A model generated the notes under the pieces. The model was given only the letters and a program-made list of their open reading frames with translations. It did not search any database and was not told where the DNA came from. Shown here in pieces: positions 119 to 51,246 of a DNA stretch of 64,000 bases (positions are counted from its first letter, which is position 1; each line of letters opens with the position of its first letter). The translations under genes and the position numbers were made by a program. The DNA comes from Limisphaerales bacterium. Its GTDB lineage: Bacteria > Verrucomicrobiota > Verrucomicrobiia > Limisphaerales > JACDHS01. The DNA is taken from the NCBI GenBank assembly GCA_046597605.1, contig JBKJKE010000038.1, positions 75,703-139,702 on the forward strand. Direction: 5' to 3'.

Positions 119-1633
119 ATGAACGTTCACACTGAGATCGAGACCTTAATCCGGGCCCGTTATCCCATTCTATATATCGTTTCCAGTGAAGAGACGCGCG
201 TGCAGAAGGCGCTGATGGAGATCGCGCAAAGGAGACAGAAGAAGCTCTTCGAATGGAGTTGCACGACCGGGATTGTGGCTGCCGGCACTTCCATTCAGTC
301 TCAGAAAGGGCGCACCTCCACCACGAAAGATCCGCTCGCGGCATTGGACCAGGTGATCGAGCAGGTGGAACCCGCCATATTCCTTTTCAAAGATTTTCAT
401 CCGTTCCTCTCCCGCAACAACTTCACCGTCATTCGTAAGCTGAAGGAGATTGCACTTCAGCTGAAAAACAGTCTGAAGACCGTCGTGTTGGTCGCGCCCT
501 CCATGGAGATTCCGACGGAACTGGAGAAGGAGATTACCGTCCTCAACTTTCCCCTGCCGACGCGCGAAGTGCTCGACGAGTTGTTGACTGAAATCATCGA
601 GGAGGTGCGTCAGTTTGAACGGGTGAAGATAGACCTGGATACCGCGGGCCGGGAGCGGTTGCTGCAGGCGGCGCTTGGTCTAACCCTCGGCGAGGCTGAG
701 AACGTTTTCGCGAAGATCATCGTCAAGGACGAGCGGCTTAGCGGCGATGATGTGAACGAAGTGTTTGCCGAGAAACAGCAGATCATTCGCAAGAGCGGGT
801 TGCTCGACTACTACTCCACCGAAGAGACTTTTGGAAATGTGGGAGGGTTAAGTGTATTGAAGGAATGGTTGCAGAAGCGGGCCGTGGCGTTCAGTGACGA
901 GGCACAACAGTTCGGTCTCTCTGCTCCCAAAGGTATTTTAATCCTGGGTGTGCAGGGATGCGGCAAAAGTCTTTCGGCCAAAGCGGTATCAAGCTTGTGG
1001 CAGTTGCCTTTGCTGCGGTTCGATATGGGCCGAATGTTTGGCAGCATGGTCGGTTCGTCGGAAGAGAACGTGCGCCGAGCCATTGCGGTGGCGGAATCGG
1101 TTGCGCCAGCGATTCTTTGGGTGGATGAAATCGACAAGGCCTTCGCGGGGTCGCAGGGATCGGGCACCAGCGATGGAGGAACGACGGCACGGGTGTTTGG
1201 CACGTTTCTCACCTGGCTTTCGGAAAAGACTGCGCCGGTCTTCGTGGTCGCTACGGCGAATGATATTTCCCATCTCCCGCCAGAACTCATGCGCAAAGGG
1301 CGCCTCGATGAAATCTTCTTCGTCGATCTGCCCGGACCGGAGGAGCGCTCCGATATCTTTGCGATTCATTTGGGGAAGCGTAAGAGGGACCCGCAGAATT
1401 TCGAATTGCCCGCGCTCGCCGCTTGCAGTGAAGGATTCAGTGGTGCGGAGATTGAGGAAGCGATCACGAGCGCGTTGTATGATGCGTTCGCGGCCGGGGG
1501 AGAAGTAACGACCGAGCACATCCTCGAATCGCTTCGGCAAACCGTTCCGCTCTCGCGAACGATGGACGAACAGATCACGCGCCTGCGTCAATGGGCAGAC
1601 GGACGCGCGCGTTACGCGAGTGTTCGTTTGTAA
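119..1633 (+). CDS. AAA family ATPase (classic-clade AAA domain with ~250-aa N-terminal domain of unknown function; COG0464/SpoVK-like)
   Basis: Walker A GVQGCGKS, Walker B ILWVDEID and second region of homology [28 protein letters not shown] are all present. A clean 504-aa ORF is preceded by a non-coding stretch. Confidence 0.8.
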
Positions 1634-1656
1634 TTGCGAAGCACCGGAGTGAAAAA

Positions 1657-1932
1657 GGTGGAGCGGAAGCTCCTAGTCAAAAGGTGGTGGGGCAAACCTG
1701 CCAGGCCGCAACGCGGGCAGTGACTCTCTAGTTCTGACTTTTTGCCCTGATTTCTGCCTTTGCGGCTGCCATCCAGATATATGAATATTCTTCGCGGGAA
1801 GTCTGTGACCCAGTTCTGCACTTCCGGCGTTTTGCTCTGCTTTGGGAATGCCCCTAGCCACAGAAGGGGCAATGTCAGGGCAAACCAGCAGGTTGTGCCC
1901 CACCTATTTTGACTAGGAGCTTCCGCTCCACC
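1657..1932. mobile_element. MITE-like element / long structured inverted repeat: 45-bp terminal inverted repeats (1657-1701 and 1888-1932) flanking a ~186-bp core
   Basis: The left arm is GGTGGAGCGGAAGCTCCTAGTCAAAAGGTGGTGGGGCAAACCTGC. The reverse complement of the right arm is GGTGGAGCGGAAGCTCCTAGTCAAAATAGGTGGGGCACAACCTGC. About 41 of 45 positions match, including the first 26. It lies in the convergent intergenic gap between the AAA ATPase gene and the M16 peptidase gene. Confidence 0.4.
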
Positions 1933-1946
1933 TGGCTGAAGTTGGA

Positions 1947-3593
1947 CTAATTCTTCATCGGCTGCATCGTGAGCGGGTCACGCAACGGCAATTCCGTTAC
2001 CTTGCCATTACCAATCTCTTCGATCTTCACTGGATGATTCGGATGGCCTTTAAGGATTTCTTCTTTTTGTCCCACGATCAGAACCACCAGGTTAGTCGAA
2101 GTAAGGAACTGTTTCGCCACACGCTGAACATCCTCCTGGGTGACGCCGTCAATGCGATCGCGATACTTATCCCAGAACAAAGGGTCTTTCTTGTAGCGAC
2201 CCGTAAACTCTTCCTGGGCAAATGTGGTTGCCACCTGTGTCTTGGTAGCAAAGGTGCGCGGGAAACGATCTATGAAAGAACGTTTGCTGATGTGCAATTC
2301 GTCTTTGGCAGGCGGCTGTTGCGCCATCTTCTTCATTTCATCCAACACGATGGAAATGGCATAGGGAACGGTGCGTGACTTCGATTGAAAGGAGGCGTTA
2401 AACGTCAGCGGATAATAGACACCGCCCGGAAGGCTCGAACTCGCAGAGTAGGCAAGGCCTTCATCGGAACGAACGCGGTTCATGATGTGCGATGTGAAAC
2501 CACCACCGCCCAAAATGTCGTTCATCAGGATAGCCGGGAAGTAATCCGGATCTTCGCGATGAATTCCCGGTAACATAATGGCGACACGTCCCTGGTTCAC
2601 ATCCTTATTCACGACGTAAATGCCCGGCTTGGCCAATTCGGTGTTCGTCGGAATTTCTGGCGGGACATCACCGGTGAACGGCCATTTCGCGAACAACTGC
2701 TCAAGCTTGGCTGTCATCTTGGCAGGCTCGAAATCGCCGCTGACCGCCACGACAAAGTTCGTGGGATGAAACCAGCGTTGGTGAAACTCCTGGAGATCTT
2801 TCTTAGTGATGCTTTCGAGGGAAGCAGCAGTTGTATAGCGATTCGCCCAAAATTTTTCTCCCTGGGCGAGAAAGCCGCGCTCCCGTTCTTCGATATCCGA
2901 AGAATCGTCGTTGCGCTGGCGAATGGATTGCAATGTCTGCGACTTGATCAATGCAATTTTATCATCCTGAAAACGCGGAGCCGTCAAAACCTCGCGCAGG
3001 ATTCCAAGACCTTCATCCAGGTCTTTGGAAAGAAGATTGAGGCTAACGCTCCCTTGCGTCTCGCCCACGCCAGAACTGAGTTGAGCAGCAAGAAAGGCGA
3101 GGCGTTCCTCGAGTTCTTCCGCGGTTTTCGACTTGGTTCCACCGCGTGCGAGCAAGTAGCCAGCGAGACTGGAGAGACCTTGTTTGCCATCCGGTTCCAC
3201 GTATTGGCCGGTACGAACCAATATCGCGATATTAATCAGCGGCAGTTCACGATTCGTGACGACATAGGCGACTGGCCCGGACTTAAGCTGCACCCGGTAA
3301 TCCGCCGGATTCGGGGGATCATATTGCAGCTCCGGATATTTCAATTGGTCCGGACGAGCGGGAATCTTGTCGATCGCAGCAGTTTCTTTTTCAGCAGCGC
3401 GTCCGCTCGTGATGCCACCCGCCGCAGCTTTGGCTGCAGCTGCTGGCTTTGCGGTAGGTCCATTGGTGCTCCGGGCTCCTGGTTTCTTCCCTTTTTCAGC
3501 GGCGGTAGTTTGCTGTGCGGAAAGTGTTCCGTGGCCAACGATCAGAAATGCGGAACAAAAAATGGTAGCGAATTGAAGAAAGGTTCTTTTCAT
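1947..3593 (-). CDS. M16 family peptidase, probable non-catalytic partner subunit (no HxxEH motif), secreted
   Basis: N-terminal signal peptide MKRTFLQFATIFCSAFLIVGHGTLSAQQ. Insulinase-like length and architecture. Start overlaps upstream M16 gene stop (ATGA at 3590-3593). Confidence 0.75.
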   Translation of the reverse strand: MKRTFLQFATIFCSAFLIVGHGTLSAQQTTAAEKGKKPGARSTNGPTAKPAAAAKAAAGGITSGRAAEKETAAIDKIPARPDQLKYPELQYDPPNPADYRVQLKSGPVAYVVTNRELPLINIAILVRTGQYVEPDGKQGLSSLAGYLLARGGTKSKTAEELEERLAFLAAQLSSGVGETQGSVSLNLLSKDLDEGLGILREVLTAPRFQDDKIALIKSQTLQSIRQRNDDSSDIEERERGFLAQGEKFWANRYTTAASLESITKKDLQEFHQRWFHPTNFVVAVSGDFEPAKMTAKLEQLFAKWPFTGDVPPEIPTNTELAKPGIYVVNKDVNQGRVAIMLPGIHREDPDYFPAILMNDILGGGGFTSHIMNRVRSDEGLAYSASSSLPGGVYYPLTFNASFQSKSRTVPYAISIVLDEMKKMAQQPPAKDELHISKRSFIDRFPRTFATKTQVATTFAQEEFTGRYKKDPLFWDKYRDRIDGVTQEDVQRVAKQFLTSTNLVVLIVGQKEEILKGHPNHPVKIEEIGNGKVTELPLRDPLTMQPMKN

Positions 3594-5824: not shown

Positions 5825-6877
5825 ATGCCTAACGAAGTGAACAAACCCAAGAACGGCTCAAATAAAGGAATCCTCGCAGTTGTCGCGATCATTGCTGTCA
5901 TCGGAGCATTCTTCCTTTTTAAGTCTAAAGGTCCAAAGCCTATAGCAACACCGGACGATACCAATGCGGCGACGGCCAGGGTCGCTTCCAGTAAAGTCCC
6001 CACCAGACCGGTATCCGCCGAGGAACCGGCGACAAATGCAGAACCGAAAGAACCGGACAAAAATGCTGAGACCACCTGGATGATCGAAGATTTTACCGAT
6101 CCCAAACGTAACTGGGATAAATACAAGATGAAGAACGTGCAGGTCACAGCACGTGGTATCGAACTCGCCCCCGGCGCCAAAGAAGGTTCGTTTGAATCTC
6201 CCGTTATCACCACGACAATCGCCGCGAACATGGTGGCCCCTTTGTGGAAACAGGAAGTGCCCAAAGGTTCCTGCGTGAAAGTGGAAATGGCGATCAGCGG
6301 TGACAATCAACACTGGAGCCCATGGTATCCTTTGGATGACACCGGCGATGATATCAGCCCTCTCTATCCTGACGGCACACCGAATCCCAACTACGGTCAC
6401 GTTCCGGGTGCGTATATTTCCACCGGTCTCGACCTGGCTGCCTTTACCCGTTATCGGTTCACCCTCGCGGCCGAAGGTTGCGATGACAAAGAATATCGCC
6501 TCCCGGACGGTTCCTTCGCTTCCAGCCTGGTTGTTTCCAGACTGCGTATGTATCTCGCCGATTCCACCCTCGGTGACGGCAAGATTCTCGGCAAAGACAA
6601 CATTCCCCCTGGTGTCCCTGGAAAAGAAACACCGGCAGGACAAGAACCGCCTCCAGCAGGTTCTGCACCAGCGCCAAACTTAACCCCAGCTTCTGACCCT
6701 GCCCCTGACGCAGCGCCGCCGTTGACGCCCGCTCCGGACACAGCACCCGATGCCGCGCCCGTCACCCCGGCTCCGGACGGAACCAATCCCGACGCAGCCA
6801 CACCGGACGCAGCACCGCCTGTCTCTCCAGCTCCGGATGCAAAGGAACCGGCCAAGCCAGCGGATCCTGTTCCATAA
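5825..6877 (+). CDS. membrane-anchored protein with N-terminal TM helix and Pro/Ala/Asp-rich low-complexity C-terminal repeats
   Basis: Start chosen at MPNEVNK (atg at 5825) immediately before the TM helix GILAVVAIIAVIGAFFLF. The C-terminus has repeated TPAPDxAPDAAP units. Followed by an intrinsic terminator. Confidence 0.6.
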   Translation: MPNEVNKPKNGSNKGILAVVAIIAVIGAFFLFKSKGPKPIATPDDTNAATARVASSKVPTRPVSAEEPATNAEPKEPDKNAETTWMIEDFTDPKRNWDKYKMKNVQVTARGIELAPGAKEGSFESPVITTTIAANMVAPLWKQEVPKGSCVKVEMAISGDNQHWSPWYPLDDTGDDISPLYPDGTPNPNYGHVPGAYISTGLDLAAFTRYRFTLAAEGCDDKEYRLPDGSFASSLVVSRLRMYLADSTLGDGKILGKDNIPPGVPGKETPAGQEPPPAGSAPAPNLTPASDPAPDAAPPLTPAPDTAPDAAPVTPAPDGTNPDAATPDAAPPVSPAPDAKEPAKPADPVP

Positions 6878-11321: not shown

Positions 11322-11413
11322 GGCTTTTGAATTATTGTAGCTGCGTTGGTGACAACGCGGGCATGCTTGCGATTCAGTCGGCCCGCGTTCTCACGAACGC
11401 AGCTACGGGAACG

Positions 11414-12691
11414 TCACTTTGCATTCAGGACCGTATAGTTCTTCTTGCCCTTGCGCAGCAGGATGTATTTTCCGAACAGCAGATCGACTGGCGTCAGTTG
11501 CCGCAGAGGATTGCCTTCCCTGATGTTGTTCACGTTGACACCGCCTTGCTCAATGTCTTTACGGGCTTGTCCCTTGGAAGGACACAGAGCCGAATGAGCC
11601 AGTGCTTCCACCAGCGGAAGCCCCTCTCCTTCAAGCTTCGATTTTTCGATTTCTTTCGTTGGAACCTCGCCGACAATTTCATTGAAGGTGGTTTCAGAGA
11701 TGCCTTCCAGACCGCCACCGAAAAGGATCTCACTGGCGCGCACCGCTTCAGCGGTGGCGTGTTCGCCGTGGATCATGTCGGTGGCAGCTTTAGCAAGCGC
11801 CTTGTGCGCGACACGAGCGCCAGGATTTTCGGCATGCGCCTTTTCGAGTGCTTCAATTTCGTCGCGGGTGAGGAAGGTGAAAAACTTCAGGTAGCGAAGG
11901 ACGTCGCGGTCGTCCGTTCGAACCCAGAATTGGTAGAACTTGTAAACGCTCGTCCTTTTCGGATCGAGGTAGATGGCTCCACCGACACTTTTGCCGAACT
12001 TGGTGCCGTCCGAATTGGTGATGAGCGGCAAGGTCAACCCGAACACGGTGTGGCTTAATTTCTTGCGTGTCAGCTCGATGCCAGCGGTGATGTTTCCCCA
12101 TTGATCGCTGCCGCCGATTTGCAATTCGCAGTTGAAGTCTCGATTTAGCACGTAGAAGTCGAATGCCTGGAGAAGCATGTAACTGAACTCGGTGTAGCTG
12201 ATTCCCACCTCGCGATCTTCCATGCGGGCGCGAACACTTTCCTTGGCCACCATCTGGTTCACGGAAAAATGTTTTCCAATATCCCGGAGGAAATCCAGGA
12301 AGCTGACATTGGCTGTCCAGGTTGCGTTGTCGAAAAGACGGGCTGGATTGGTTTTGCTTTCGAAGTCAAGGAGTCGGGTCAGTTGACCTTTCACGCAGGC
12401 AATGTTGTGGTCGAGGATATCCTTGGTCAGGAGTTGCCGTTCCTGCGTTTTGCCACTTGGGTCACCAATTGAGCCGGTGGCGCCACCAGCCAGGGCTATG
12501 GGATGGTGCCCAGCGTTCTGGAAGCGTCGGAGGGCGATGAGTGGGACGAGATTACCAACGTGCAGAGAATCGGCTGTCGGGTCGAAGCCGCAATAGAGCG
12601 TTGTTGGTGTGGCCAGTCGTTTGACGAGAGTTTCGGTATCGGTGCAATCTGCGATCAATCCCCGCCACTGCAATTCTTCATGAATGCTCAT
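11414..12691 (-). CDS. tyrS: tyrosine--tRNA ligase
   Basis: Class I HIGH motif (HVGNLVPL) and KMSKS-type motif KFGKS. C-terminal S4-like RNA-binding tail. 425 aa. Confidence 0.95.
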   Translation of the reverse strand: MSIHEELQWRGLIADCTDTETLVKRLATPTTLYCGFDPTADSLHVGNLVPLIALRRFQNAGHHPIALAGGATGSIGDPSGKTQERQLLTKDILDHNIACVKGQLTRLLDFESKTNPARLFDNATWTANVSFLDFLRDIGKHFSVNQMVAKESVRARMEDREVGISYTEFSYMLLQAFDFYVLNRDFNCELQIGGSDQWGNITAGIELTRKKLSHTVFGLTLPLITNSDGTKFGKSVGGAIYLDPKRTSVYKFYQFWVRTDDRDVLRYLKFFTFLTRDEIEALEKAHAENPGARVAHKALAKAATDMIHGEHATAEAVRASEILFGGGLEGISETTFNEIVGEVPTKEIEKSKLEGEGLPLVEALAHSALCPSKGQARKDIEQGGVNVNNIREGNPLRQLTPVDLLFGKYILLRKGKKNYTVLNAK

Positions 12692-21968: not shown

Positions 21969-22262
21969 TCAATTCCAAGGGTCTTTCCAAATATTGAAAC
22001 AGACGATTAGTATAAAAACAAATGCGGAGACGTCGCATATTGCCTCAGCTCTCCTTCTAGCTGTCGGGCACAACCCTTTCATCATTCTAAGCGGTACAAA
22101 TAGAAGAAGGGTGGACCACCCTAAACCGAAAACAATGCCAACGAAAAAGCCGATAAAAATAAAACTGTTCCCTTGGAATCCCATGTCTACCCCGCCGAAG
22201 AAGCCTGCCAAACAGCAGAAAAACACCCGGAGGATTTGAAAAATAGTCTTCAAATTTCTCAT
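21969..22262 (-). CDS. hypothetical small membrane protein
   Basis: 97-aa ORF with two hydrophobic helices, upstream of the ABC operon on the same strand. No motif. Confidence 0.3.
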   Translation of the reverse strand: MRNLKTIFQILRVFFCCLAGFFGGVDMGFQGNSFIFIGFFVGIVFGLGWSTLLLFVPLRMMKGLCPTARRRAEAICDVSAFVFILIVCFNIWKDPWN

Positions 22263-22435: not shown

Positions 22436-22775
22436 ATTTGCTCGAACAGAGGTGGATTCCAGGAAAATTTCGGCCCTTGTTTCCAGAACAGAGACGGATT
22501 TAAGACTTTTTTCGGCCCCTGTTCGAGAACGGAGGCGGATTTAAGACTTTTTTCGGTCCCTGTTCCAGAACAGAGGCGGATTTGAGACTTTTTTCGGTCC
22601 CTGTTCCAGAACAGAGGTGGATTTGAGACTTTTTTCGGTCCTTGTTCCAGAACAGAGGCGGATTTAAGACTAATTTCGGTCCTTGTTCCAGAACAGGGGC
22701 GGATTTAAGACTTTTTCCGGTTCCTGTTCCAGAACAGGCCCCGTTTTAAGCCTAATATTCACCTCTGTTCTGGGG
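22436..22775. repeat. intergenic tandem array of ~8 copies of a 41-bp unit (consensus TCCAGAACAGAGGCGGATTTAAGACTTTTTTCGGTCCCTGT), each unit containing the palindrome CTGTTC-CA-GAACAG
   Basis: Units begin at about 22441 (degenerate), 22482, 22523, 22564, 22605, 22646, 22687 and 22728 (degenerate, ending ~22773). The period of 41 is not a multiple of 3, and units differ by 0-4 point substitutions. Confidence 0.85.
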
Positions 22776-22964: not shown

Positions 22965-23966
22965 TTAAGGGGACGAATCCGACGCCTTGCTCTTTGAATC
23001 CACGGGAGCCGTTTCTGTTGCACCATCCGGCTTCTTGCCTTTTTCCAACTCATCAGCCCTGCGAGCGAGCTTGTCTTTGATCCCGGCATACATCTGGTTC
23101 GTCAGCGAGGTCAGATCTTTCCTCGCCTCATCAAACCTGCCGAGATTGAGTTTGCAACGGGCGAGGTGAATTACGATTCCTTCGCGTTCGATTTCATCAC
23201 GCGCCAGTGGCAACACCCCTTCCCACGCTTTGAGCCCTTCATCGTAGCGTGGAGGTTTGGTGCCATAAAAACTTTGGGCATAATCCGTCGCCAGGATGAA
23301 ATCATTCGGAGCCAACTTCATGGCCTGACGATAAAGTCCTAGGGCTTTGTCGAAGACCTCGGTTTCCGAGATGCCATAATATTCCATGGCGTCCGGTCGA
23401 AAGAGGTAAACGGTGGTGGCAAAGTTTTGAAAGTAAACCGGTTCGTCCGGGTCCAACTCGATGGCTTTGGCGTAATACTCGAACGATTTCTTCACCGGAC
23501 TGCGGTGCCCGTAATAATTCGCTAAATTGTTGTAGATGGCCGGATTCTTAGGGTCGAGCTCCCGCGCTTTTTCCCAGGCGACCTTTGCTCCAAATTCATC
23601 CCCGCGTTCATTCAGGAAACTGCCGTACGCCACATGCGCCCTGGAATGTTTGGGATTACGTTCGAGAAAATCTTCGTAAGCTTTTTTTACCACATCCAGG
23701 CGCTGTTCGATTTTCAGGTTGAGGGTGGCTTCGGAAGTACCAACCCCTTTTTCCTCAAATTGCTTGGCGTCCCGGATCCATTTGTCGATCTCTGTCCGAG
23801 CCTCATCGTCCTGGCGCATGATTGCCTTGTATTCGCGTTCAACTGGATCTTTGGGATTAGCAACGTCAATGGAAATCCCGGTTGTGTTCTCCACAAGATT
23901 ACTGACGGCAGCAGGTTCATTAGTAGAAACAAGCGCGCTCAGCAGTCCGATCAAGAGTTTACTCAC
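22965..23966 (-). CDS. secreted tetratricopeptide (TPR) repeat protein
   Basis: Signal-like N-terminus, repeated A..Y..A/LG..EA TPR-like helices, Asp/Lys/Ser-rich C-terminal tail. Confidence 0.7.
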   Translation of the reverse strand: MSKLLIGLLSALVSTNEPAAVSNLVENTTGISIDVANPKDPVEREYKAIMRQDDEARTEIDKWIRDAKQFEEKGVGTSEATLNLKIEQRLDVVKKAYEDFLERNPKHSRAHVAYGSFLNERGDEFGAKVAWEKARELDPKNPAIYNNLANYYGHRSPVKKSFEYYAKAIELDPDEPVYFQNFATTVYLFRPDAMEYYGISETEVFDKALGLYRQAMKLAPNDFILATDYAQSFYGTKPPRYDEGLKAWEGVLPLARDEIEREGIVIHLARCKLNLGRFDEARKDLTSLTNQMYAGIKDKLARRADELEKGKKPDGATETAPVDSKSKASDSSP

Positions 23967-33230: not shown

Positions 33231-36200
33231 TTGTTTGAGGTAACAATGGCCGACAACTTACCGAAAGAGCAGACCACCACCCCTGCTCCAGAGCAAACAC
33301 CGGGGGCATCGTCTGTCCTGGGCAATGCGACGTATGAAATCATTCGTCAGCGTTTGCAAAGCCAGGGCAACCTGCTGCGCGAACGTATGTCCAAGCTGGA
33401 TGGCGCGCGACAAGAGGTCTTTGGCAATGTTGAGTTCAAGCTTCTCCAGGCAGATCGCATCACCACATCCCACAACTGCATTCCGCAGGACATGGTGCAA
33501 CTCGGTCACGGACGCTTTCTCTTTGGATTCAATATCCAGTTCGGCCTGAAGAAGGAAATTGAGCTCACCGATGTCTTCGCAATTTACCATCGTGATCAGG
33601 AGGCCGGCACATTCAAGGAATCGGATCTCGAATCATTGGGAGACAAAAACTTTCTCACCGACTTCAAGCGTCTTTACAACGTTTATACCAAAGCTTCGTT
33701 CAGCAAGTTTTCCGTGATCGAAGGCTGCCTCTACATGGTGTTCAACACCGGCAGCGGAGCAAATGACCATGCGGTTTTTAAATGGGCATTCCTGGGAGAT
33801 GCATTGCGTTATGTCGATGGCCGCGCCGAAAGCGAATACCGCAAAGTTGGTTTTCCGCCACCGTTCGAGTTCCGTTGGCAAACTCCGAATCGCGAATCAT
33901 TTCGTTATGGAGACCATCCTCATATCTCGATCGAAGACCGCGTATTCGTAGAATGCGTCGGCGGCGATCTCACGATCAAAGTCGAAGACAACACGAAGAC
34001 TGGGGAAGGTGTTTTTAGTGAACCGGTTGAGGACAAGAACCAGAAAGTCGATGATGCAGAGATCGCTTATGCGATCATTGAGCATTTGATCCTTCTCAAG
34101 ATTCGCCCGTACAAGGAAACGAACCCGCGTTTTTTCATCTTCAACGAGAAGCTGAACCAGGCCGTGCGCGTGGATTCACTAGGGCAATCGTGCGTGCTCC
34201 TCCCGGAAGATCACGGACTTATTTTTCCGGACGGATATTATCTGGGCACTGGCGAACTGAAACAGTTCGAGAGCAAAGAAAAAGGGATGACAATTGAGCG
34301 CGTCATCAATTCGCCCAACGGCGAAGATTCTCTCTACGTCTTTTATGGTCGCGAGAAAGGCGAGTATTCGCTCATGCCCTATCGGTTGATCTCACAGAAG
34401 GTCGAAGAGCGAATCAGTTGCCACGGTTACTCCCTTTTTCCCAACGGTCACCTGGTTTCCTTCCGCAGCGAACCAGAAGCGCAGAAGCATCACATGATTC
34501 AGCTTCGGCAAACCCCGTTCTATCAAGCGGGCCACGAGCCAAGCGGTAAGAAAGACGCTTTCCTTTACCAGGTTGGAAACAAGGATGTCGTTCGCGCCCT
34601 GGCCGAATGCAACGAAGTCCTGACGCTCGTCCGGAAAGAAAATCCATACGCAGAACTCTATTCCGACCTGGTGAAGCGCTGTAGTTCGATGCTGGATGCG
34701 TATCCCTGGCTCAATACGGAACACGCATTCGGAATCAACGAGGCGTTGCGCCAGGTGCGGGAAGTTGCCGACAAAGCCGTCGACGAATTCGACAAGGTTC
34801 GTCGGATGCAACGCGAGGCAGTCCAGAAGGTGAAAGAGGTTCGAGAACGGACCGAAGAACGCTTCAACTTATTGCGCCGAGCCAGTTTCAATAAGCTCGA
34901 AGACTTCGTTCATAATCTTTCAGCATTGCGCCATCTCCGCGGTGAACTCATCACCCTCAAGGAACTTCGATACGTGGACGTCGCTCTGCTTGAAACGATC
35001 GAGAAACAAGTTACCGAACAGACAGAGCAACTTTCCACCTCATGCGTCCAGTTCCTGCTCAAGCCGGAAGCTCTTGAGCCGTATCGCAAGCAAGCCGCCG
35101 AACAATCTGCGGCAGTCGAAAAGGTCACGAGGACAGCCGAAGGTAAAAAGATCGAGAAAGCTGTGTCCGAGGCGGGTGCCGAACTCGAGATGCTGATCGA
35201 GATCGTAAACAGTCTTAAGATTGAGGATGCCACCGAAACGACGCGTATTATTGATGCGATCACCACGGTATATTCAACGCTGAACCAGATTAAAGCGGCG
35301 TTGAAGAAACAGTTGCAGAGTCTTGCTGCCGCCGAAGGTGCCGCCCAGTTCAGTGCTCAAATTAAGTTACTAAGCCAGGCCGCGGCAAGTTACCTGGACC
35401 TGTGCGATTCACCGGCGAAATGTGATGAATACCTCAATCGCATCACAGTGCAACTGGAAGAACTTGAAGGCACTTTTGCAGATTTCGAAGAATACACGGT
35501 TCAACTGTCCGATCGCCGGACAGAACTCTACGAAGCGTTTGAACAAAGGAAGATCGCTTTAGTCGAACAACGCAATCGCAAGGCCAACGGTCTTCTGACC
35601 GCAGCGGAACGCATCTTGAAGGTAATCCAGAATCGTTTGGCTGGATTCGGGACGATCGAAGACATCAACACCTACATGGCCTCGGATATGATGGCCGCGA
35701 AGGTGCGCGAAACGATCGTCCAGTTGCTCGCACTGGACGATGCAGTTAAAGCCGACGATTTGCAGGGCCGCATCAAAAGTGTTCACCAGGATGCGGTGCG
35801 ACAGCTGAAGGATCGCAACGAACTGTTCGTGGGCGGTGAGAACGTCATCCAGTTGGGGAAACATCGCTTCAACATCAACACCCAACCGCTCGACCTCACG
35901 GTGGTGAATCGGGACGGGGTCCAGAACATTCACCTTACCAGCACGAAGTATTTCGAAGAGATCACCGATCCAGAATTTCTTGCAACGCGCGAGGTATGGA
36001 ACCAGGAAGTCATTTCCGAAAACCAACTGGTCTACCGGGGCGAGTATCTTGCCTATAAGCTGCTGCAATCCCTTGAAGCCGAAAACAAGAGCGCAGAGGT
36101 TCTGGCCATGTCCGAGTCGGATCGGCTCGCCCTGTTGCAGAACTTCATGACCTCCCGTTATCAGGAGAGTTACACCAAGGGGATTCATGATCTTGATGGA

Positions 36201-38675
36201 GCCAGGATTTTCCATGCGTTACTAACCACTCACCAGGCGCTTCAACTCGCGCGCTTTCATCCAACGATACGTGCCTGTGCCGTGGTGTTCTGGTTCCAAT
36301 TCTGTCCGGCAGAGGCGCGAGCGCTCTGGACTTCCAAGCTCAAAGGCTTCGCTGAGAAGAATAAATTCTTCCCCGGTGACACCACACAACAGACTTACGT
36401 TACGGCGCTGCAAAAGCTGATTGGAAGTTTCATTGAAGAAACTCAGCTTTACGGGAAAGAGCACGCCGAGGCGGCTGGGGAATACCTCTTTCAACAACTC
36501 ATCAGCAGTGATTCCATCGTGGTGAGTTACGAGGCGGACAAACTGGTTGCAGATTTTAAAAAGCATCTCGCCTCCAAAGGCTGTGAGGATGCTTTTACCA
36601 AAGCAAATGAAGCATTAACGGAACACCCGGCCAGCCGATTGGAACTGATCCGCGATTGGTCGCGTGGGTTTCTTCTGAAGCAGGACGGACTCAATACTTA
36701 CTTGGAAGAAGTCAGCGCCCTGCTTTTCTGTGGCGACAAAGTGCAACGCAATGTAGTCCGCACCGAAACGACTGCAACGATCGAAGGAATTCGCGCCAGC
36801 CACAATCTGATCAATGGGAGCACCTATCATTTCGATTACCTGTCCTTCCAGGCGAAGCTAAAACGATTTGAGAAGGAAGTTGTGCCACCCTTCCTGCGGT
36901 ATCACGAACTGAAACAACAACTGGTGGAACGCGAGCGTCGTCGCTTGCGGTTGGATGAATTCAAACCGCGCGTGCTTGGTTCCTTCATGCGCAGCCAGTT
37001 GTTGGACGAAGTTTATCTGCCGATGGTCGGCGACAATCTGGCCAAGCAGATTGGTGCCGCAGGTGCGCAGAAGCGGACCGACTTGATGGGACTGCTCCTG
37101 CTGATTTCTCCTCCCGGTTACGGCAAAACCACGTTGATGGAGTATGTCGCCAGCCGTCTCGGGATCGTTTTCGTTAAGATCAACGGCCCTGCCCTCGGTC
37201 ATGAGGTGACTTCTCTCGATCCGGAAGAAGCACCGAACGCGGCAGCGCGTGAAGAAGTGCAGAAGCTGAACCTCGCGTTGGAAATGGGAGACAACGTCCT
37301 AATTTGTGTAGACGACATTCAGCACACCAATCCGGAGTTCCTCCAGAAGTTTATCTCCCTGTGCGACGGCCAACGCAAGATCGAAGGCGTGTGGCGTGGC
37401 AAACCGCGCACTTACGACCTACGCGGACGCAAAGTGGTGGTTGTAATGGCCGGCAATCCTTACACCGAGAGCGGTCAAAAATTCAAATTGCCCGACATGC
37501 TCGCGAACCGCGCGGACACCTACAATCTCGGCGATATCATTGGTGGAAAAATCGACTACTTCAAATCGAGCTACATCGAGAATGCGGTCACTTCCAATGC
37601 CATCCTGGCGCAGCTTGCGAACAAAAGTCAGAAAGACGTGCGCAATTTCATTCGGATGGCGCAGCAAGGTGACCGGGACACAGCCGGGTTCGAAGGAAGT
37701 TACTCCGCCCAGGAAGTTGAAGAGATTCTCTCGGTGGTTAAGAAGTTGGTCACAATCCGAGAAGTCGTTTTCAAGGTAAACCTCGAATACATCCATTCCG
37801 CCGCACAGTCGGACGAGTTCCGCACGGAACCCCCGTTCCGACTCCAGGGTTCGTATCGTAACATGAATCGGCTTACCGAAAAGGTTGTGCCGATTATGAA
37901 CGAAGACGAAGTGAAGGCGCTTTTGATTGATCATTACCGAAGTGAATCACAAACGCTGACGACGGGAGCCGAAGGCAACTTCCTCAAATTTAAAGAAATG
38001 ATGGGCTGGGCCACCCCTGAAGAAAAAGTGCGATGGGACGACATCAAGAGGACGTTCAAACGCAACCAACTCACCCGTGGGGTGGATCAAAGCGATGCCG
38101 CTGGGCGAGTCGTAGCGCAGCTATCCAGCGTTCAAGCTGGTCTTGAAGCAATCCAGGCTACGATGGAGAAGCAGCTTTCAAAACCGCAGCCGCAGTTCGT
38201 GGTGGATTTCTCCCCGCTCCAGCCAGGTCTTGAGTCCTTACGCGCTGCAATCGAGAGTCAGTCATCGAATTCAGCAAAGCAAAGCGGCGACGGAGCCATC
38301 ACGCGAAATGAAATCGTTATCTCGGAACAATTCACCGAAGCAATGAATTCATTGCGCGAGGAATTAAGTCGCGCAATTGCGGCAGACCGCGCCAGCACCG
38401 TGGCAGAACGCCTTTCCAACGTGTTGCATGAAATGAAGATCATGCACAGCACGCTGGCTACTCTGAAGGACGTTACTTCCCAACAGCGGGACCATTTGCG
38501 GAACGTTGAAGAAAAGCTGACGGCACAGGCAAAAGATGGCGTCGTGGAGTTCGCGCTGACTCAAGAAATGTTGCAGAACGAACAGGCGTTTCTGGACAAG
38601 TTTCAGCAGGCACTCTCACAGACGGAAAAACCGGCTGAACCTGAACCAATAAAGAAGCCCGGAAAGACAAAGTAG
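33231..38675 (+). CDS. giant (1814-aa) protein with a single AAA_5 (MoxR/dynein/McrB-type) ATPase domain embedded in long helical/coiled-coil regions
   Basis: Walker A LLISPPGYGKTTLMEY at ~aa 1277. Walker B-like VLICVDDIQH. AAA_5-type sensor/Arg-finger block VVVVMAGNPYTESGQKFKLPDMLANRADTYNL. The ~1200 residues before it and ~400 after it have no recognisable domain. Starts 141 nt after the flotillin gene. Confidence 0.8.
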   Translation: MFEVTMADNLPKEQTTTPAPEQTPGASSVLGNATYEIIRQRLQSQGNLLRERMSKLDGARQEVFGNVEFKLLQADRITTSHNCIPQDMVQLGHGRFLFGFNIQFGLKKEIELTDVFAIYHRDQEAGTFKESDLESLGDKNFLTDFKRLYNVYTKASFSKFSVIEGCLYMVFNTGSGANDHAVFKWAFLGDALRYVDGRAESEYRKVGFPPPFEFRWQTPNRESFRYGDHPHISIEDRVFVECVGGDLTIKVEDNTKTGEGVFSEPVEDKNQKVDDAEIAYAIIEHLILLKIRPYKETNPRFFIFNEKLNQAVRVDSLGQSCVLLPEDHGLIFPDGYYLGTGELKQFESKEKGMTIERVINSPNGEDSLYVFYGREKGEYSLMPYRLISQKVEERISCHGYSLFPNGHLVSFRSEPEAQKHHMIQLRQTPFYQAGHEPSGKKDAFLYQVGNKDVVRALAECNEVLTLVRKENPYAELYSDLVKRCSSMLDAYPWLNTEHAFGINEALRQVREVADKAVDEFDKVRRMQREAVQKVKEVRERTEERFNLLRRASFNKLEDFVHNLSALRHLRGELITLKELRYVDVALLETIEKQVTEQTEQLSTSCVQFLLKPEALEPYRKQAAEQSAAVEKVTRTAEGKKIEKAVSEAGAELEMLIEIVNSLKIEDATETTRIIDAITTVYSTLNQIKAALKKQLQSLAAAEGAAQFSAQIKLLSQAAASYLDLCDSPAKCDEYLNRITVQLEELEGTFADFEEYTVQLSDRRTELYEAFEQRKIALVEQRNRKANGLLTAAERILKVIQNRLAGFGTIEDINTYMASDMMAAKVRETIVQLLALDDAVKADDLQGRIKSVHQDAVRQLKDRNELFVGGENVIQLGKHRFNINTQPLDLTVVNRDGVQNIHLTSTKYFEEITDPEFLATREVWNQEVISENQLVYRGEYLAYKLLQSLEAENKSAEVLAMSESDRLALLQNFMTSRYQESYTKGIHDLDGARIFHALLTTHQALQLARFHPTIRACAVVFWFQFCPAEARALWTSKLKGFAEKNKFFPGDTTQQTYVTALQKLIGSFIEETQLYGKEHAEAAGEYLFQQLISSDSIVVSYEADKLVADFKKHLASKGCEDAFTKANEALTEHPASRLELIRDWSRGFLLKQDGLNTYLEEVSALLFCGDKVQRNVVRTETTATIEGIRASHNLINGSTYHFDYLSFQAKLKRFEKEVVPPFLRYHELKQQLVERERRRLRLDEFKPRVLGSFMRSQLLDEVYLPMVGDNLAKQIGAAGAQKRTDLMGLLLLISPPGYGKTTLMEYVASRLGIVFVKINGPALGHEVTSLDPEEAPNAAAREEVQKLNLALEMGDNVLICVDDIQHTNPEFLQKFISLCDGQRKIEGVWRGKPRTYDLRGRKVVVVMAGNPYTESGQKFKLPDMLANRADTYNLGDIIGGKIDYFKSSYIENAVTSNAILAQLANKSQKDVRNFIRMAQQGDRDTAGFEGSYSAQEVEEILSVVKKLVTIREVVFKVNLEYIHSAAQSDEFRTEPPFRLQGSYRNMNRLTEKVVPIMNEDEVKALLIDHYRSESQTLTTGAEGNFLKFKEMMGWATPEEKVRWDDIKRTFKRNQLTRGVDQSDAAGRVVAQLSSVQAGLEAIQATMEKQLSKPQPQFVVDFSPLQPGLESLRAAIESQSSNSAKQSGDGAITRNEIVISEQFTEAMNSLREELSRAIAADRASTVAERLSNVLHEMKIMHSTLATLKDVTSQQRDHLRNVEEKLTAQAKDGVVEFALTQEMLQNEQAFLDKFQQALSQTEKPAEPEPIKKPGKTK

Positions 38676-39516: not shown

Positions 39517-39547
39517 GAAGAGAGGTGCACTGAAGGACAGGAGTGAA

Positions 39548-40039
39548 TCACTTCTGATCCTCATTGGCCTTTCTAAGTTCTTCGTTGTGCTCTGCCAAAG
39601 CACGGACACGACTAATTTGGCCGTTCGATTCCCTCCAATAGGGCACGTTGTTTGTGTAGAAGAACCGGTCGAGCGATCGGAACTGTTGTTCAGGGTCCAA
39701 TTTGCTAGCTGGAAGAATTTCCTGGGAAATCTTCCCCTTCCGAATACGCACTATGCACATCCAATACCTTTTATCTGCACTACCGCCCCAATAGCGTGAA
39801 CCGGAGCACCACCTTTTTTCCCGCGAATGGTTGCACTTTGTGGCTACCCCGTTCTCTACGGCGAAATCAACCCATCCCTCATCCGCATCATTCAGGGACC
39901 GGCTGACCAGCGACGACTCACCATCCCAAATAACACTCCCATTAAGTGCATGAAGTTTCCCTGCGCGCCGCCGGACTCTACCTGATGTGTCTTGATGGTC
40001 TTTGGGCTTCGCCGTTGCTAGCCAACTCGCCGCCCACAC
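39548..40039 (-). CDS. hypothetical protein (doubtful; only C-terminal ~70 codons look protein-like)
   Basis: 163-aa ORF convergent with 38710-39516. The N-terminal half is Trp/Arg-rich and may be non-coding. Confidence 0.2.
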   Translation of the reverse strand: MWAASWLATAKPKDHQDTSGRVRRRAGKLHALNGSVIWDGESSLVSRSLNDADEGWVDFAVENGVATKCNHSREKRWCSGSRYWGGSADKRYWMCIVRIRKGKISQEILPASKLDPEQQFRSLDRFFYTNNVPYWRESNGQISRVRALAEHNEELRKANEDQK

Positions 40040-40136
40040 CCGGCCTCTCTGTCCGTTCGTATTCCTGCGGTCGCAGGTTTGCCTGCTGCTTTTTTCAGCC
40101 GCCGCCTCGCGGCATCAACCTTGCAGTTCGGCTACC

Positions 40137-40259
40137 GTTACTGGTCGTCGCGGGAGCCGCAACGGTCGAAAACACGCGTTACTGGCCGTCGCGGGAGCCG
40201 CAGCAGTCGAAAACACGCGTTACTAGTCGTCGCGGGAGCCGCAACGGGCGATAACGCGC
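40137..40259. repeat. three tandem 41-bp direct repeats (GTTACTGGTCGTCGCGGGAGCCGCAACGGTCGAAAACACGC) plus a partial fourth
   Basis: The three copies start at 40137, 40178 and 40219 and carry 3-5 substitutions each. Each copy contains the short palindrome GCGG-GAG-CCGC. Located 3' of the MidA-like methyltransferase gene. Confidence 0.8.
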
Positions 40260-40350
40260 GTTACGGGTGCTTATACAGATTCCAAAAGGGTGAAAAACGA
40301 GGAAAAGGACCCTTTCCGGGTTAAGACTCCTGCCTTCCTGCCCCTTTGGG

Positions 40351-41415
40351 TCATCGGCTTTGCACAACCACCTTGAACCTGGTGCCAAGATGACTTGGAT
40401 GAGTCAGAGTCTGGAACTGTGCCAGTCGTTTTCGATCCCACTGCGCCGCTGACATGGAAGTATTACTCAACAACTGGGTTAAGAATTTTGCCTGGGAATC
40501 GAAGAACTCTGTTTTCAGTCCAGCGGCTTCTCCCGCCGCGATGATGGCAGAAAAATTAATATGGGAAGTGATATCCTGATCTCCGGGATTGGCTAAAAGG
40601 TCCTCGACAAGATGATGTTTGAAATAAGCGCGGGCGGTTCCCCTGCTCCGTTCTGGCGAAAGGAGTTGTTCACCTGTGATCCCGTAATCGATTGCCACTA
40701 ACTTGCCTTGCTTCAGTTTTTCGGCAGCGGACTGCCACCAGAGAGAGGCAGCGGGTGAAATCTCGGTGGTGAAACCGTCAGGCAATACTTCGGCTAGTTC
40801 GCTCGGCACGAAAGGAAGTTCGAGTCGGTCGCCTGAAAAGTGATCCATCACCCAGAAGAATTCCCGATTCACAGTCCAAGACACTTTCAACTCCATCCAT
40901 TGATTCAATTGTTTATTCCAGGAGATGCGATGGAACGGCATCGCATCGAGCAACTCATTGGAAAAGACGATCCCGGTGAACGCTTCTACGTCATCCCAAC
41001 TTTCCGCCCACCAGGCGTGTGGGAAGTTCTGGAGCTTCTCTTGCTGCCAAGCCTGGTGAGTGGGCGACGGTTCAATGATTCCATAGCGAATTCTCTCCCC
41101 GAGTTTCGGATCGCACCGCCGCAACGCTTCAAGAATATCCAACGCAAGTTGACCGTCGTTTGCTCCGCATTCAACAATATGCAACGGGGTTGTTGCTTCG
41201 TATTGAGCCAGGCATTGAGAGAATTGAGCAGCCAGCAGTTCGCCGAATAGACATCCAACGCTGACACTGGTGTAAAAGTCTCCCGCGCGCCCGACTCTGC
41301 CCTTTTGTTCGTAATAACCAAGTGCTGGCGCGTAAAGTGCTAGTTCCATGAAACGAGCAAAAGAAATGGGTCCATTGTTCTCAATATCGCGAACGATGCT
41401 TTGTTTCAGATTCAT
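40351..41415 (-). CDS. class I SAM-dependent methyltransferase, MidA/DUF185 (NDUFAF7-like) family
   Basis: YYEQKGRVGRAGDFYTSVSVGCLFGELLA is the hallmark DUF185 N-terminal block. Start set at MNLKQSIV (41415). Divergent from pilT. Confidence 0.7.
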   Translation of the reverse strand: MNLKQSIVRDIENNGPISFARFMELALYAPALGYYEQKGRVGRAGDFYTSVSVGCLFGELLAAQFSQCLAQYEATTPLHIVECGANDGQLALDILEALRRCDPKLGERIRYGIIEPSPTHQAWQQEKLQNFPHAWWAESWDDVEAFTGIVFSNELLDAMPFHRISWNKQLNQWMELKVSWTVNREFFWVMDHFSGDRLELPFVPSELAEVLPDGFTTEISPAASLWWQSAAEKLKQGKLVAIDYGITGEQLLSPERSRGTARAYFKHHLVEDLLANPGDQDITSHINFSAIIAAGEAAGLKTEFFDSQAKFLTQLLSNTSMSAAQWDRKRLAQFQTLTHPSHLGTRFKVVVQSR

Positions 41416-41470: not shown

Positions 41471-42562
41471 ATGGCCAAAATTGACGCCTTTTTCAACCTG
41501 ATGCTGGAGCAAAAAGCTTCAGACTTGCACATGTCTTCAGGAAATCCGCCTATCCTGCGGATCAACGGTGAGTTGCAACGCGTGGATTATCCTCCGCTGG
41601 AAAACGACCAGTTGAAGACGATGCTCTACGAAATTTCTCCGGAATATAAGATCAAACATTTCGAAGAAACCGGCGATGTTGACTTCGGTTATGAAATTCC
41701 GGGAGTGTCTCGCTTTCGCGCAAACTTCTTCAACCAGAAGTACGGCATCGCCGCCGTCTTCCGCCAGATTCCTTCGAAGGTGTTGTCCTTTGATGACTTT
41801 GAAAAATTCGATGCTCCGATGCCAGGTGTTCTGAAGAAATTCTGCATGTTGCATCGTGGGCTGGTTGTCGTCACCGGGCCTACCGGTTCCGGTAAGTCCA
41901 CGACGCTCGCTGCGATGGTCGACTACTCGAACAAGAACCGCAAAGATCACATTATCACGGTTGAAGACCCGATCGAATTTGTGCACGAGAGCAAGAATTG
42001 CCTCGTGAACCATCGTGAAGTCGGCGTTCACACCAAGTCATTCGCGGCGGCACTCAAAGGTGCTCTCCGTGAAGATCCGGATATCGTGCTGGTCGGTGAG
42101 TTGCGGGATTTGGAAACCATCGAACTCGCGCTGACGGCTGCGAGCACAGGGCATTTGGTCTTCGGCACACTGCACACTCAGAGTGCTGCGAAAACCGTGG
42201 ATCGTATCATCGACGTTTTCCCTGCTGAACAGCAGAACAAAATCCGAGCCACCCTTTCTGAATCACTCAAGGGCATCGTCGCGCAGAACTTGTTCAAGCG
42301 CATTGATAAGAAAGGCCGTGTCGCAGCCCTTGAGATCCTGGTCTTTACCACGGCTGTCGCCAACCTGGTTCGCGAAGGAAAAACACATCAAATTCCCGGT
42401 ATGATTCAGGTCGGTAAGAAGCTCGGCAACATGCCGTTGGATGACAGCATCATGGAACATCTCCGCATGAAGCGTATTTCCCCGGAAGAAGCTTACGATA
42501 AGTGCCTTGATAAGAAAAAATTCCGTCCCTTCCTGGCGCACCCTCCTGAGGACGAAGAATAA
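41471..42562 (+). CDS. pilT: type IV pilus twitching-motility ATPase PilT
   Basis: MAKIDAFFNLMLEQKASDLHMSSGNPPILRINGEL N-terminus. Walker A GPTGSGKST. Conserved AIRH-like region GHLVFGTLHT. Confidence 0.9.
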   Translation: MAKIDAFFNLMLEQKASDLHMSSGNPPILRINGELQRVDYPPLENDQLKTMLYEISPEYKIKHFEETGDVDFGYEIPGVSRFRANFFNQKYGIAAVFRQIPSKVLSFDDFEKFDAPMPGVLKKFCMLHRGLVVVTGPTGSGKSTTLAAMVDYSNKNRKDHIITVEDPIEFVHESKNCLVNHREVGVHTKSFAAALKGALREDPDIVLVGELRDLETIELALTAASTGHLVFGTLHTQSAAKTVDRIIDVFPAEQQNKIRATLSESLKGIVAQNLFKRIDKKGRVAALEILVFTTAVANLVREGKTHQIPGMIQVGKKLGNMPLDDSIMEHLRMKRISPEEAYDKCLDKKKFRPFLAHPPEDEE

Positions 42563-42595: not shown

Positions 42596-43828
42596 ATGCG
42601 CAGAAACGAACTCGATCATATCCTGAAAACGATGCTGGAAGGCCCAGCCATCGATTCTGCAACCAAGAAGGATATCTCCGATCTAAACTTTACGGTGGAT
42701 AAACCACTGCAAGTGGAACACATGGGCGAGTTGGTTGTGATTCAATCGGCACCTCCGATTGAGAAGTTGACCCCTTATCAGACAGAGATGGTTGCTCTCA
42801 ATCTGGTCGGGGCAAACTTCCGGTTGCTGGAAGACCTCCTGCGGTTTGGATCCTGCGACTGTGCTTATACCTTGACTGGCCTCGCCCGGTTTCGCGTAAA
42901 CATTTTTTCTCAACGCGGAAACTACTCTATCGTCTTGCGTAAGTTGAACACCAAGATTCCCTCACTGCAGGATTTGGAGATGCCGCAAATCTTCCGTGAG
43001 GTTGCGAAAGAGAAAACCGGGCTGGTGCTGGTCACTGGAGCAACTGGTTCTGGTAAATCAACAACGCTCGCTGCGTTGCTGGACGAGGTAAACGATACGC
43101 GCGCCGTTCACATCATTACTCTGGAGGATCCGGTAGAATTCATTCATGAACAGCGTTTGGCGACTTTCAATCAACGCGAACTCGGCAATGACTTTAGTAC
43201 TTTTGTTGCGGGGCTAAGGGCCGCGTTGCGTCAGGCACCCAAAATCATTCTGGTTGGGGAAATGCGTGATCGTGAAACGGTTGAAATTGCTTTGAGTGCT
43301 GCGGAAACGGGCCATCTGGTGATGAGCACATTGCACACAATCGACGCGGGACAAACGATCAATCGTGTTCTTGGTCTCTTTGATCAATCGGAACAGGAAC
43401 AGGTGAGGCGCCGGTTGTCAGATACCTTGCGTTGGGTTATTAGCCAACGTCTCGTGCCAAAAATCGGCGGGGGCCGTCTCGCACTCCTGGAAATCATGGG
43501 ATCGAACATGCGAACCCAGGAAACCATCATGCAGGGCGAAAGCGAAGGTAAGAGCTTCTATGAAATCGTAGAAGCGAGCTACCCGTTTGGCTGGCGCACT
43601 TTTGATGCTTCCTGCATCGAAGCGTATGAAAACGGTGCCATCACAGAAGAAACCGCCGAACTCTATTCCAGCAAAAAAGGTGTCGTCGTCCGCAAGATCG
43701 ATTACGTCAAGAAGGCTCGAGGTGAGGCAGCAATGAATTCAAACGATTTGCGTATGAAGTCGCTGTTGGATGCCAACCCGAGTGCCGGTGCCCCCCCCCA
43801 GATCCCGAACAGGCTAAAACTTAAATAA
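42596..43828 (+). CDS. PilT/PilU-family retraction ATPase paralog
   Basis: Walker A GATGSGKST. The GHLVMSTLHT block is paralogous to the upstream pilT. 410 aa with an extended C-terminal tail. Confidence 0.85.
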   Translation: MRRNELDHILKTMLEGPAIDSATKKDISDLNFTVDKPLQVEHMGELVVIQSAPPIEKLTPYQTEMVALNLVGANFRLLEDLLRFGSCDCAYTLTGLARFRVNIFSQRGNYSIVLRKLNTKIPSLQDLEMPQIFREVAKEKTGLVLVTGATGSGKSTTLAALLDEVNDTRAVHIITLEDPVEFIHEQRLATFNQRELGNDFSTFVAGLRAALRQAPKIILVGEMRDRETVEIALSAAETGHLVMSTLHTIDAGQTINRVLGLFDQSEQEQVRRRLSDTLRWVISQRLVPKIGGGRLALLEIMGSNMRTQETIMQGESEGKSFYEIVEASYPFGWRTFDASCIEAYENGAITEETAELYSSKKGVVVRKIDYVKKARGEAAMNSNDLRMKSLLDANPSAGAPPQIPNRLKLK

Positions 43829-50985: not shown

Positions 50986-51246
50986 AGTTTTTCGCTTAAG
51001 AAAGCGGGCAAACGAAAATGAGGTTTGAGCAAAGCAGTGTCAAGACGGTGAAATGCTCCTTTATGATATGGAATTCGGCGAAAACCAGAACCTAACCACG
51101 GATCCGCACCGATGAACACAGATTGGAATGGCTTCCGCAAAGCTCATTTCCACCCAGGGATCAGTAGAATTGAACCTATCGGCAGCGCAACAGGCGCATT
51201 GGCTTGTTCCTTATCAGTGTTAATCCGTGTACATCCGTGGTTTATC

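Follow-up and report, generated by a model that had tools for sequence, protein, structure and literature searches.

An orphan inverted-repeat element of MITE-like shape between convergent AAA+ ATPase and M16 peptidase genes in an uncultured Verrucomicrobiota genome

The window, by which we mean the whole 64-kb stretch of DNA that was analysed, is ordinary chromosome with tyrS, rpoD, aconitase, dxr, and glycosyltransferase genes. Its host is an uncultured Verrucomicrobiota bacterium whose closest named relatives are MAGs of Limisphaerales and Pedosphaera. A 313-nt gap (1634–1946) separates an AAA+ ATPase gene from a convergent M16 peptidase gene, which is the second of two M16 genes in its operon. 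An inverted-repeat element of 278 bp in total fills most of this gap; the first-pass annotation of this DNA had described it with a length of 276 bp. The stop codon of the ATPase gene lies 22 nt before the left arm of the element (intervening bases 1634–1655), while that of the M16 gene is 13 nt from the right arm. The locus is composed of the following features:

119..1633, plus strand: AAA+ ATPase gene, 504 aa, with Pfam domains AAA and AAA_lid_3
1652..1656, A5 on the plus strand: U-tract in the minus-strand transcript, adjoining the closing base pair of the long hairpin, with four of its five bases outside the repeat
1656..1701: left arm, outer part 1656–1682 perfect, inner part 1683–1701 imperfect
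1660..1673: mini-hairpin GGAGC-GGAA-GCTCC at the left terminus, within the perfectly repeated portion of the arm, −9 to −10 kcal/mol; in the minus-strand reading, ACC TTTTT comes next
1679..1682: A4 tract, separating the outer and inner parts of the left arm
1702..1887: core, 186 nt
1783–1790: palindrome GAATATTC in an AT-rich stretch near the core centre
1878..1900, plus strand: local hairpin GGGCAAACC-AGCA-GGTTGTGCCC, −14 kcal/mol
1888..1933: right arm, outer part 1907–1933 perfect, inner part 1888–1906 imperfect, pairing with the left arm with one bulge and an internal loop of 2–3 nt
1907..1910: T4 tract, separating the inner and outer parts of the right arm; on the plus strand it comes after the inner stem and the local hairpin
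1916..1929: right terminal mini-hairpin, mirror image of the left one, with no T-run after it on the plus strand
1947..3593, minus strand: M16 peptidase gene, 548 aa, with Pfam domains Peptidase_M16 and M16_C

A repeat search reported the two arms (1656–1701 and 1888–1933), each of 46 nt and separated by 186 nt, as the sole inverted repeat within 1400–2200. Their outer 27 nt (1656–1682 and 1907–1933) are perfect, which bears out the earlier statement that the first 26 bases of the arms match. The 64-kb window contains the 26-mer GGTGGAGCGGAAGCTCCTAGTCAAAA at exactly two places, one on each strand, and in a control none of 100 dinucleotide-preserving shuffles matched it, even at three mismatches. 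Within the inner 19 nt, 16 positions match if two indels are allowed, the inner parts differing by two substitutions and two indels. The arms had been described as complementary at about 41 of 45 positions; this is about right for the gapped alignment (43 of 47 columns, 91.5%) and too high for the ungapped one (38 of 46 positions, 83%). The stem is built from 27 perfect pairs, followed by an internal loop and 16 pairs with one bulge, and the “45-bp perfect stem” mentioned in the first-pass annotation has to be corrected in this respect. An independent assembly of the same sample, SRR31159418 (Logan contig SRR31159418_2234, locus L001), is identical in sequence across the region. An assembly artefact is ruled out by the agreement of the two assemblies together with the imperfect arms. 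The inverted-repeat element is real, well delimited, and an orphan.

Further order is found within the element. The A4 tract at 1679..1682 and the T4 tract at 1907..1910 bracket the GC-rich inner stem such that, on either strand, A's are placed upstream and U's downstream. Moreover, positions 1878–1889 are a direct repeat of 1690–1701, so that two pairings are open to the inner right arm, one local and one with the left arm. Two short motifs are strongly enriched, with four occurrences of AGGTGG (0.18 expected) and seven of GGGCA (0.7 expected). Perfect 27-nt termini followed by a less exact subterminal part with repeated short motifs constitute the usual layout of transposon ends.

In line with the long-stemmed structure considered earlier, the whole element folds far better than shuffled sequences on both strands, with −145.5 kcal/mol on the plus strand (z −8.0) and −144.3 kcal/mol on the minus strand (z −9.2). 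The 186-nt core alone equals its shuffles (z 0.06 and −0.28), and the arms joined by a tetraloop yield −86.5 kcal/mol. Hence, structure is confined to the arms. All 43 stem pairs of the plus strand are of the Watson–Crick type and none is a G–U pair. Exclusive Watson–Crick pairing and the equal folding of both strands place the symmetry at the level of DNA, and the stem points to a DNA sequence present in two copies rather than to a selected or maintained RNA. As far as can be seen, the element is not a conserved structured RNA; the Rfam 15 covariance models gave no match at E ≤ 1 on either strand of 1400–2200. Several RNA-derived candidates were rejected. ARAGORN finds no tRNA from which the ends could derive, and a known RNA family, a retron RNA, and a group II intron are dismissed at this site by the missing Rfam match and by the lack of a reverse transcriptase gene nearby.

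Likewise, we found little sign of coding content. ORFs of 43–86 aa overlap the element, and those of 46–86 aa have no Pfam match. Repeated elements often receive spurious ORFs from gene callers; to catch such ORFs on other copies, the gap was translated in six frames, concatenated, and compared with 5.8 billion proteins, which returned nothing at E ≤ 1. The gene caller behind the Logan contig placed no gene in the element, and no promoter-like site was found inside the element or its core. A small protein was discarded as a candidate in view of the missing homologue and the lack of a convincing start context. The earlier description of a ~186-bp core free of credible ORFs is therefore upheld, the overlapping ORFs (46–86 aa) having neither a Pfam match nor a homologue.

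The C-terminus of the M16 peptidase is intact compared to its homologues. The ATPase lacks a tail of ~13 residues ending in RRMEF that is seen in 517-aa relatives, and other relatives are equally short. In-silico removal of the 278 bp leaves a spacer of 35 nt, similar in magnitude to the other tight spacings of convergent genes in the window (−4, 16, and 31 nt).

The closest homologue of the AAA ATPase is 84% identical and that of the M16 peptidase 79%, both with different neighbours. The AAA/M16 junction is absent from the seven AAA-side and ten M16-side loci of the closest relatives, and the adjacency is unique to the host genome among the loci compared. In these relatives, the ATPase gene is followed by Golvesin/TPR, DUF1257-DUF2997, or TPR-T2SSE genes, and the M16 gene is followed by other genes, too; the relatives also differ from one another in gene order after both genes. 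Searches of 131 kb of the relatives' loci by blastn, nhmmer, and tblastx revealed no trace of the element. Because nothing of it is found beside the orthologous genes of the relatives, the element is taken to be lineage-specific. The AAA cluster of the relatives comprises an ECF-type sigma factor, a small ORF, a radical SAM protein, a second small ORF, and the ATPase, continued by DUF1257/DUF2997 or by TPR and a T2SSE ATPase. Compared with loci L003–L007 and L018–L019, the host retains only the sigma factor, a small ORF, and the ATPase (119–1633; L001 1317–2137). A derivation of the element from the genes after the ATPase in relatives (DUF1257/DUF2997, TPR, T2SSE) was rejected, as tblastx found nothing. 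Two adjacent T2SSE-family (PilT/PilU-like) ATPase genes are located at 41471–42562 and 42596–43828 on the plus strand. These genes (41.5–43.8 kb) were considered as a relocated piece of the cluster and set aside as paralogues, with 32–36% identity to the T2SSE gene of that cluster.

Further copies of the arms or of the whole element, which the MITE reading of the first-pass annotation led one to expect, were found nowhere. Sensitive blastn and nhmmer detect no second copy in the 64-kb window or in the extra flank of 2 kb by which Logan contigs extend it (L001); within the window, blastn matches only the element itself and its own arms. The terminal unit occurs solely at the two element ends in 64 kb, even if three mismatches are permitted. 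An exact 20-mer of the arm has no match in 185,579 species-representative genomes, in the JGI metagenomes, or in IMG/VR. Similarly, a pattern spanning both arm halves has no exact match in the JGI metagenomes, a pattern pairing the arm tips has none in IMG/VR, and blastn in distant mode against plasmids and phages was negative. A transposase-bearing parent element with these termini was found neither in the window nor in the three collections, and no transposase or recombinase is encoded among the ~47 ORFs scanned in the window plus 2-kb flank (66 kb). In a literature search, the terminal 14-mer turned up only in an unrelated trypanosome primer.

No target-site duplication, which had been suggested as a mark of insertion, abuts the repeat. 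The best candidate, the 4-nt TGAA, is shifted by 2 nt at the left end and 3 nt at the right end, which does not exceed chance for 81 tested combinations of boundaries. By design, no 31-mer occurs more than once in the contigs of one Logan accession (PMC12424806). The k=31 contig L001 crosses the element unbroken with unique flanks on both sides. Thus, a second copy in the same genome that shares a 31-mer is most probably absent, as is an abundant flipped form, and the unbroken contig speaks against a recently amplified family; this argument extends to copies sharing a 31-mer and does not cover a parent element that shares the 27-nt termini only. The first-pass annotation had held that a lack of other copies, combined with conservation and compensatory covariation at orthologous loci, would tell against a mobile element; the former is what we observe as far as the searched data reach, and for the latter none of the relatives compared offers the same gene junction.

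Between 1500 and 2100, the only terminator-like site is formed on the minus strand by the left mini-hairpin, read from 1673 to 1660, and the subsequent ACCTTTTT. No site on the plus strand qualifies as a terminator, and a U4 lies 6 nt after the bulged local hairpin. Clear terminators of this genome have stems of 10–12 bp, loops of 4–6 nt, and T6 runs, and examples of them follow the genes ending at 6877 and 27482 as well as the minus-strand aconitase gene at 48142–50985. As these terminators are short and end in T-runs, the element is not built on the local terminator pattern. The terminator or insulator that had been put forward as an alternative to a MITE finds partial support in the mini-hairpin with its T5 on the minus strand, although the element does not resemble the short terminators that are normal in this genome.

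Judged from these signals, both convergent transcripts would read into the element and fold into a stem of 27 + 16 bp, to which the arms by themselves contribute about −86 kcal/mol. On the strand of the M16 operon, the full stem or the terminal mini-hairpin, with a U-tract directly after it, would provide the only terminator-like signal of the operon. For the ATPase transcript, U4 would come after the inner stem or after the local hairpin, the latter being a weaker signal. Additionally, a perfect RNA duplex of 27 bp would be expected to serve as a substrate of RNase III. These terminator signals are likely a consequence of the location of the element and not its origin; that a 43-bp stem with an interior of 186 nt evolved as a terminator is unlikely.

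Comparison with known systems delimits what the element may be. Correia elements of Neisseria are MITEs with long terminal inverted repeats that are present in hundreds of near-identical copies and carry a flanking TA duplication. They can be co-transcribed with their neighbours, giving rise to a long hairpin that serves as terminator and RNase III target. The element described here resembles them as a short, non-coding, intergenic unit with terminal inverted repeats of ~26–27 bp, and by analogy it could be co-transcribed into a long hairpin. Unlike Correia elements, it is represented by one copy, has no duplication, and is similar in sequence to nothing in the searched data. REP, BIME, and REPIN sequences are mobilised by RAYT transposases, and REP units are highly repeated at approximately one per several kb. 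The element shares with this group a small palindromic hairpin at each end, mutually inverted ends, and a position between convergent genes or at 3′ ends. In contrast to REP units, its 14-nt hairpin with flank is limited to these two places in 64 kb, and in contrast to REPINs, its spacer is much longer and no RAYT (Y1_Tnp) gene is contained in the window. As in intrinsic (Rho-independent) terminators and their bidirectional forms at convergent genes, the element directly follows stop codons, here two of them, combines a GC-rich stem with a U-tract on the minus strand, and has A and T tracts flanking the inner stem; unlike in intrinsic terminators, the stem reaches 43 bp, the interior 186 nt, and the full stem is not followed by a U-tract on the plus strand. 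Finally, invertons are invertible promoters or segments flanked by inverted repeats. The ~27-bp perfect inverted repeats around a segment of a few hundred bp are similar, whereas the element differs from invertons in that no recombinase is encoded nearby, no promoter-like site lies inside it, it is placed between two 3′ ends, and two assemblies show it in a single orientation.

Taken together, we tentatively interpret the 278-bp unit as a footprint left by a non-autonomous, MITE-shaped DNA element that has terminal inverted repeats. This is the single most likely origin, albeit one we hold with limited confidence. Sharp termini, subterminal motifs, an unstructured non-coding core, symmetry at the DNA level, and lineage specificity favour such an origin. 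It is further favoured by the 35-nt spacer that excision leaves, which is close to other convergent junctions, and the intact M16 C-terminus counts in the same direction, as does the placement of the only terminator-like site at the left end of the element. On the other side stand the missing target-site duplication, second copy, parent element, and transposase in the searched sequence. Moreover, a long-resident solitary copy is not expected to keep 27 of 27 termini positions perfect without selection, which counts against a transposon footprint. The first-pass annotation had recognised the architecture of a MITE, and this part holds with respect to the terminal inverted repeats (46-nt arms, outer 27 nt perfect), the non-coding core, the intergenic position, and the size, which at 278 bp and without an internal transposase gene lies within the range of MITEs (below ~600 bp). 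Mobility as a repeated family was negative in every available test, and these tests lean against a recently active family. Consequently, “MITE-like” is fair for the shape of the element, but its mobility is unproven and it is not classed as a MITE.

The same evidence must be weighed against origins that involve no transposition. The element might be the product of a local rearrangement, that is, of an inverted duplication or a template switch at a reshuffled junction, with neither mobility nor a selected function. The unique AAA/M16 adjacency agrees with this, given that all seven AAA-side and all ten M16-side loci of relatives have other neighbours, and so do the single copy, the missing target-site duplication, and the absence of homologues in anything searched; a stem of Watson–Crick pairs only would fit a recent copy at the DNA level. 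However, a perfect 27-nt part next to a diverged part is hard to obtain from one duplication event, no neighbouring sequence in the window or in the relatives' loci resembles the arms or the core as a possible source, and the synteny break is not distinctive, as the downstream gene order of the relatives varies on its own. We consider a rearrangement rather doubtful for these reasons. A 3′-end RNA element that arose in place, common to both transcription units as a long-stemmed bidirectional terminator, insulator, or mRNA-stabilising hairpin, would account for the start 22 nt after one stop codon and the end 13 nt before the other, for the hairpin with T5 on the minus strand as the only terminator-like site of the gap, and for the A4 and T4 tracts bracketing the inner stem on both strands together with the local hairpin and U4 near the right end on the plus strand. 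Other long hairpins occur just past stop codons as well (11337–11406, z −8.3; 51094–51242, z −5.1). Yet the normal terminators of the genome (10–12-bp stems, 4–6-nt loops, T6 runs) look different, a 186-nt unstructured “loop” is ill-suited to co-transcriptional termination, and the plus strand has no U-tract after the full stem. Further, an RNA origin is disfavoured by the complete lack of G–U pairs (0 of 43), by the equal energy of both strands, and by conservation in none of the relatives compared, leaving it unlikely.

Site-specific recombination offers another route to the same layout. If the element were an invertible segment, its 27-nt repeats would be recombinase sites at which the ~224-bp interior is flipped, altering which internal signal each strand encounters. 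Perfect 27-bp inverted repeats around a short asymmetric segment match this layout, the dyad GGAGC-N4-GCTCC in each repeat could seat a recombinase dimer, and recognition by a protein would explain identical sites in a single-copy element. Nevertheless, 66 kb contain no recombinase gene, the element has no internal promoter-like site, a switchable promoter would not act between two 3′ ends, and the orientation is the same in the MAG and the Logan assembly, the k=31 graph being unbranched at the repeat. An inverton is accordingly quite improbable. A special form of it, in our estimate very improbable, is a single-copy, recombinase-driven invertible insulator between the convergent operons, in which flipping would move the local terminator hairpin (1878–1900 with U4) from one transcript to the other. 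Such a flip would switch which unit ends early and which reads antisense into its neighbour, and protein recognition would keep the 27-bp sites identical, explaining the pristine repeat of a single-copy element. Lastly, an independent gene for a small RNA or a small protein inside the core is hardly to be expected. While ORFs of 43–86 aa overlap the element and its fold is strong, no Rfam match at E ≤ 1 was obtained, the core structure is at chance level, a promoter-like site, a Pfam match, and a homologue in any frame are all missing, and no gene is called here on the Logan contig.

According to the preferred reading as a transposon footprint, the element would have been acquired in the host lineage only. 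It would have arrived by transposition, with the transposase provided in trans by an element outside the accessible sequence, would have undergone no recent amplification in the host genome, and would now reside alone in a short convergent spacer. If mobile, it would represent the first transposon family with such termini to be sighted in a poorly sampled, Limisphaerales-like lineage of Verrucomicrobiota. It would likewise add to the cases in which a transposon end serves as a 3′ hairpin for its neighbours, which is useful for annotation and not surprising. At present, the sequence is an orphan from a single metagenome-assembled genome and opens no long-standing question.

Several other features of the window were observed along the way. 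A hairpin of 70 nt with a stem of ~24 bp (11337–11406, z −8.3), far longer than the usual terminators of the genome, is positioned 7 nt downstream of the tyrosyl-tRNA synthetase gene (11414–12691, minus strand). Unrelated to the inverted-repeat element, a 149-nt hairpin element at 51094–51242 pairs over its whole length, with 30-nt arms that are 80% complementary (z −5.1), and ends 4 nt from the 3′ end of a DUF7133/cytochrome c gene (51247–54234, minus strand). A full-length Rfam match to group-II-D1D4-3 (RF02001; 87.5 bits, E 3.5e-16) is located at 39948–40116 on the minus strand within an 835-nt stretch (39517–40351). In its vicinity, neither a D5/D6 match nor a reverse-transcriptase domain is found, and an overlapping ORF of 163 aa (39548–40039) has no Pfam match; the feature resembles a group II intron that is truncated or lacks an ORF. 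The very large ORF at 33231–38675 (plus strand; 1814 aa) carries DUF3686 (“ATPase involved in DNA repair”, E 1e-164) at its N-terminal end, DUF7902, and an AAA domain at its C-terminal end. Finally, the 702-nt gap between the ORFs 21969–22262 and 22965–23966 harbours a tandem array (22468–22773) of 6.6 copies of a 41-bp unit with 90% matches. Each unit contains the palindrome CTGTTCCAGAACAG, with a further inverted copy at 22723–22773, and the array resembles putative operator- or iteron-like sites.
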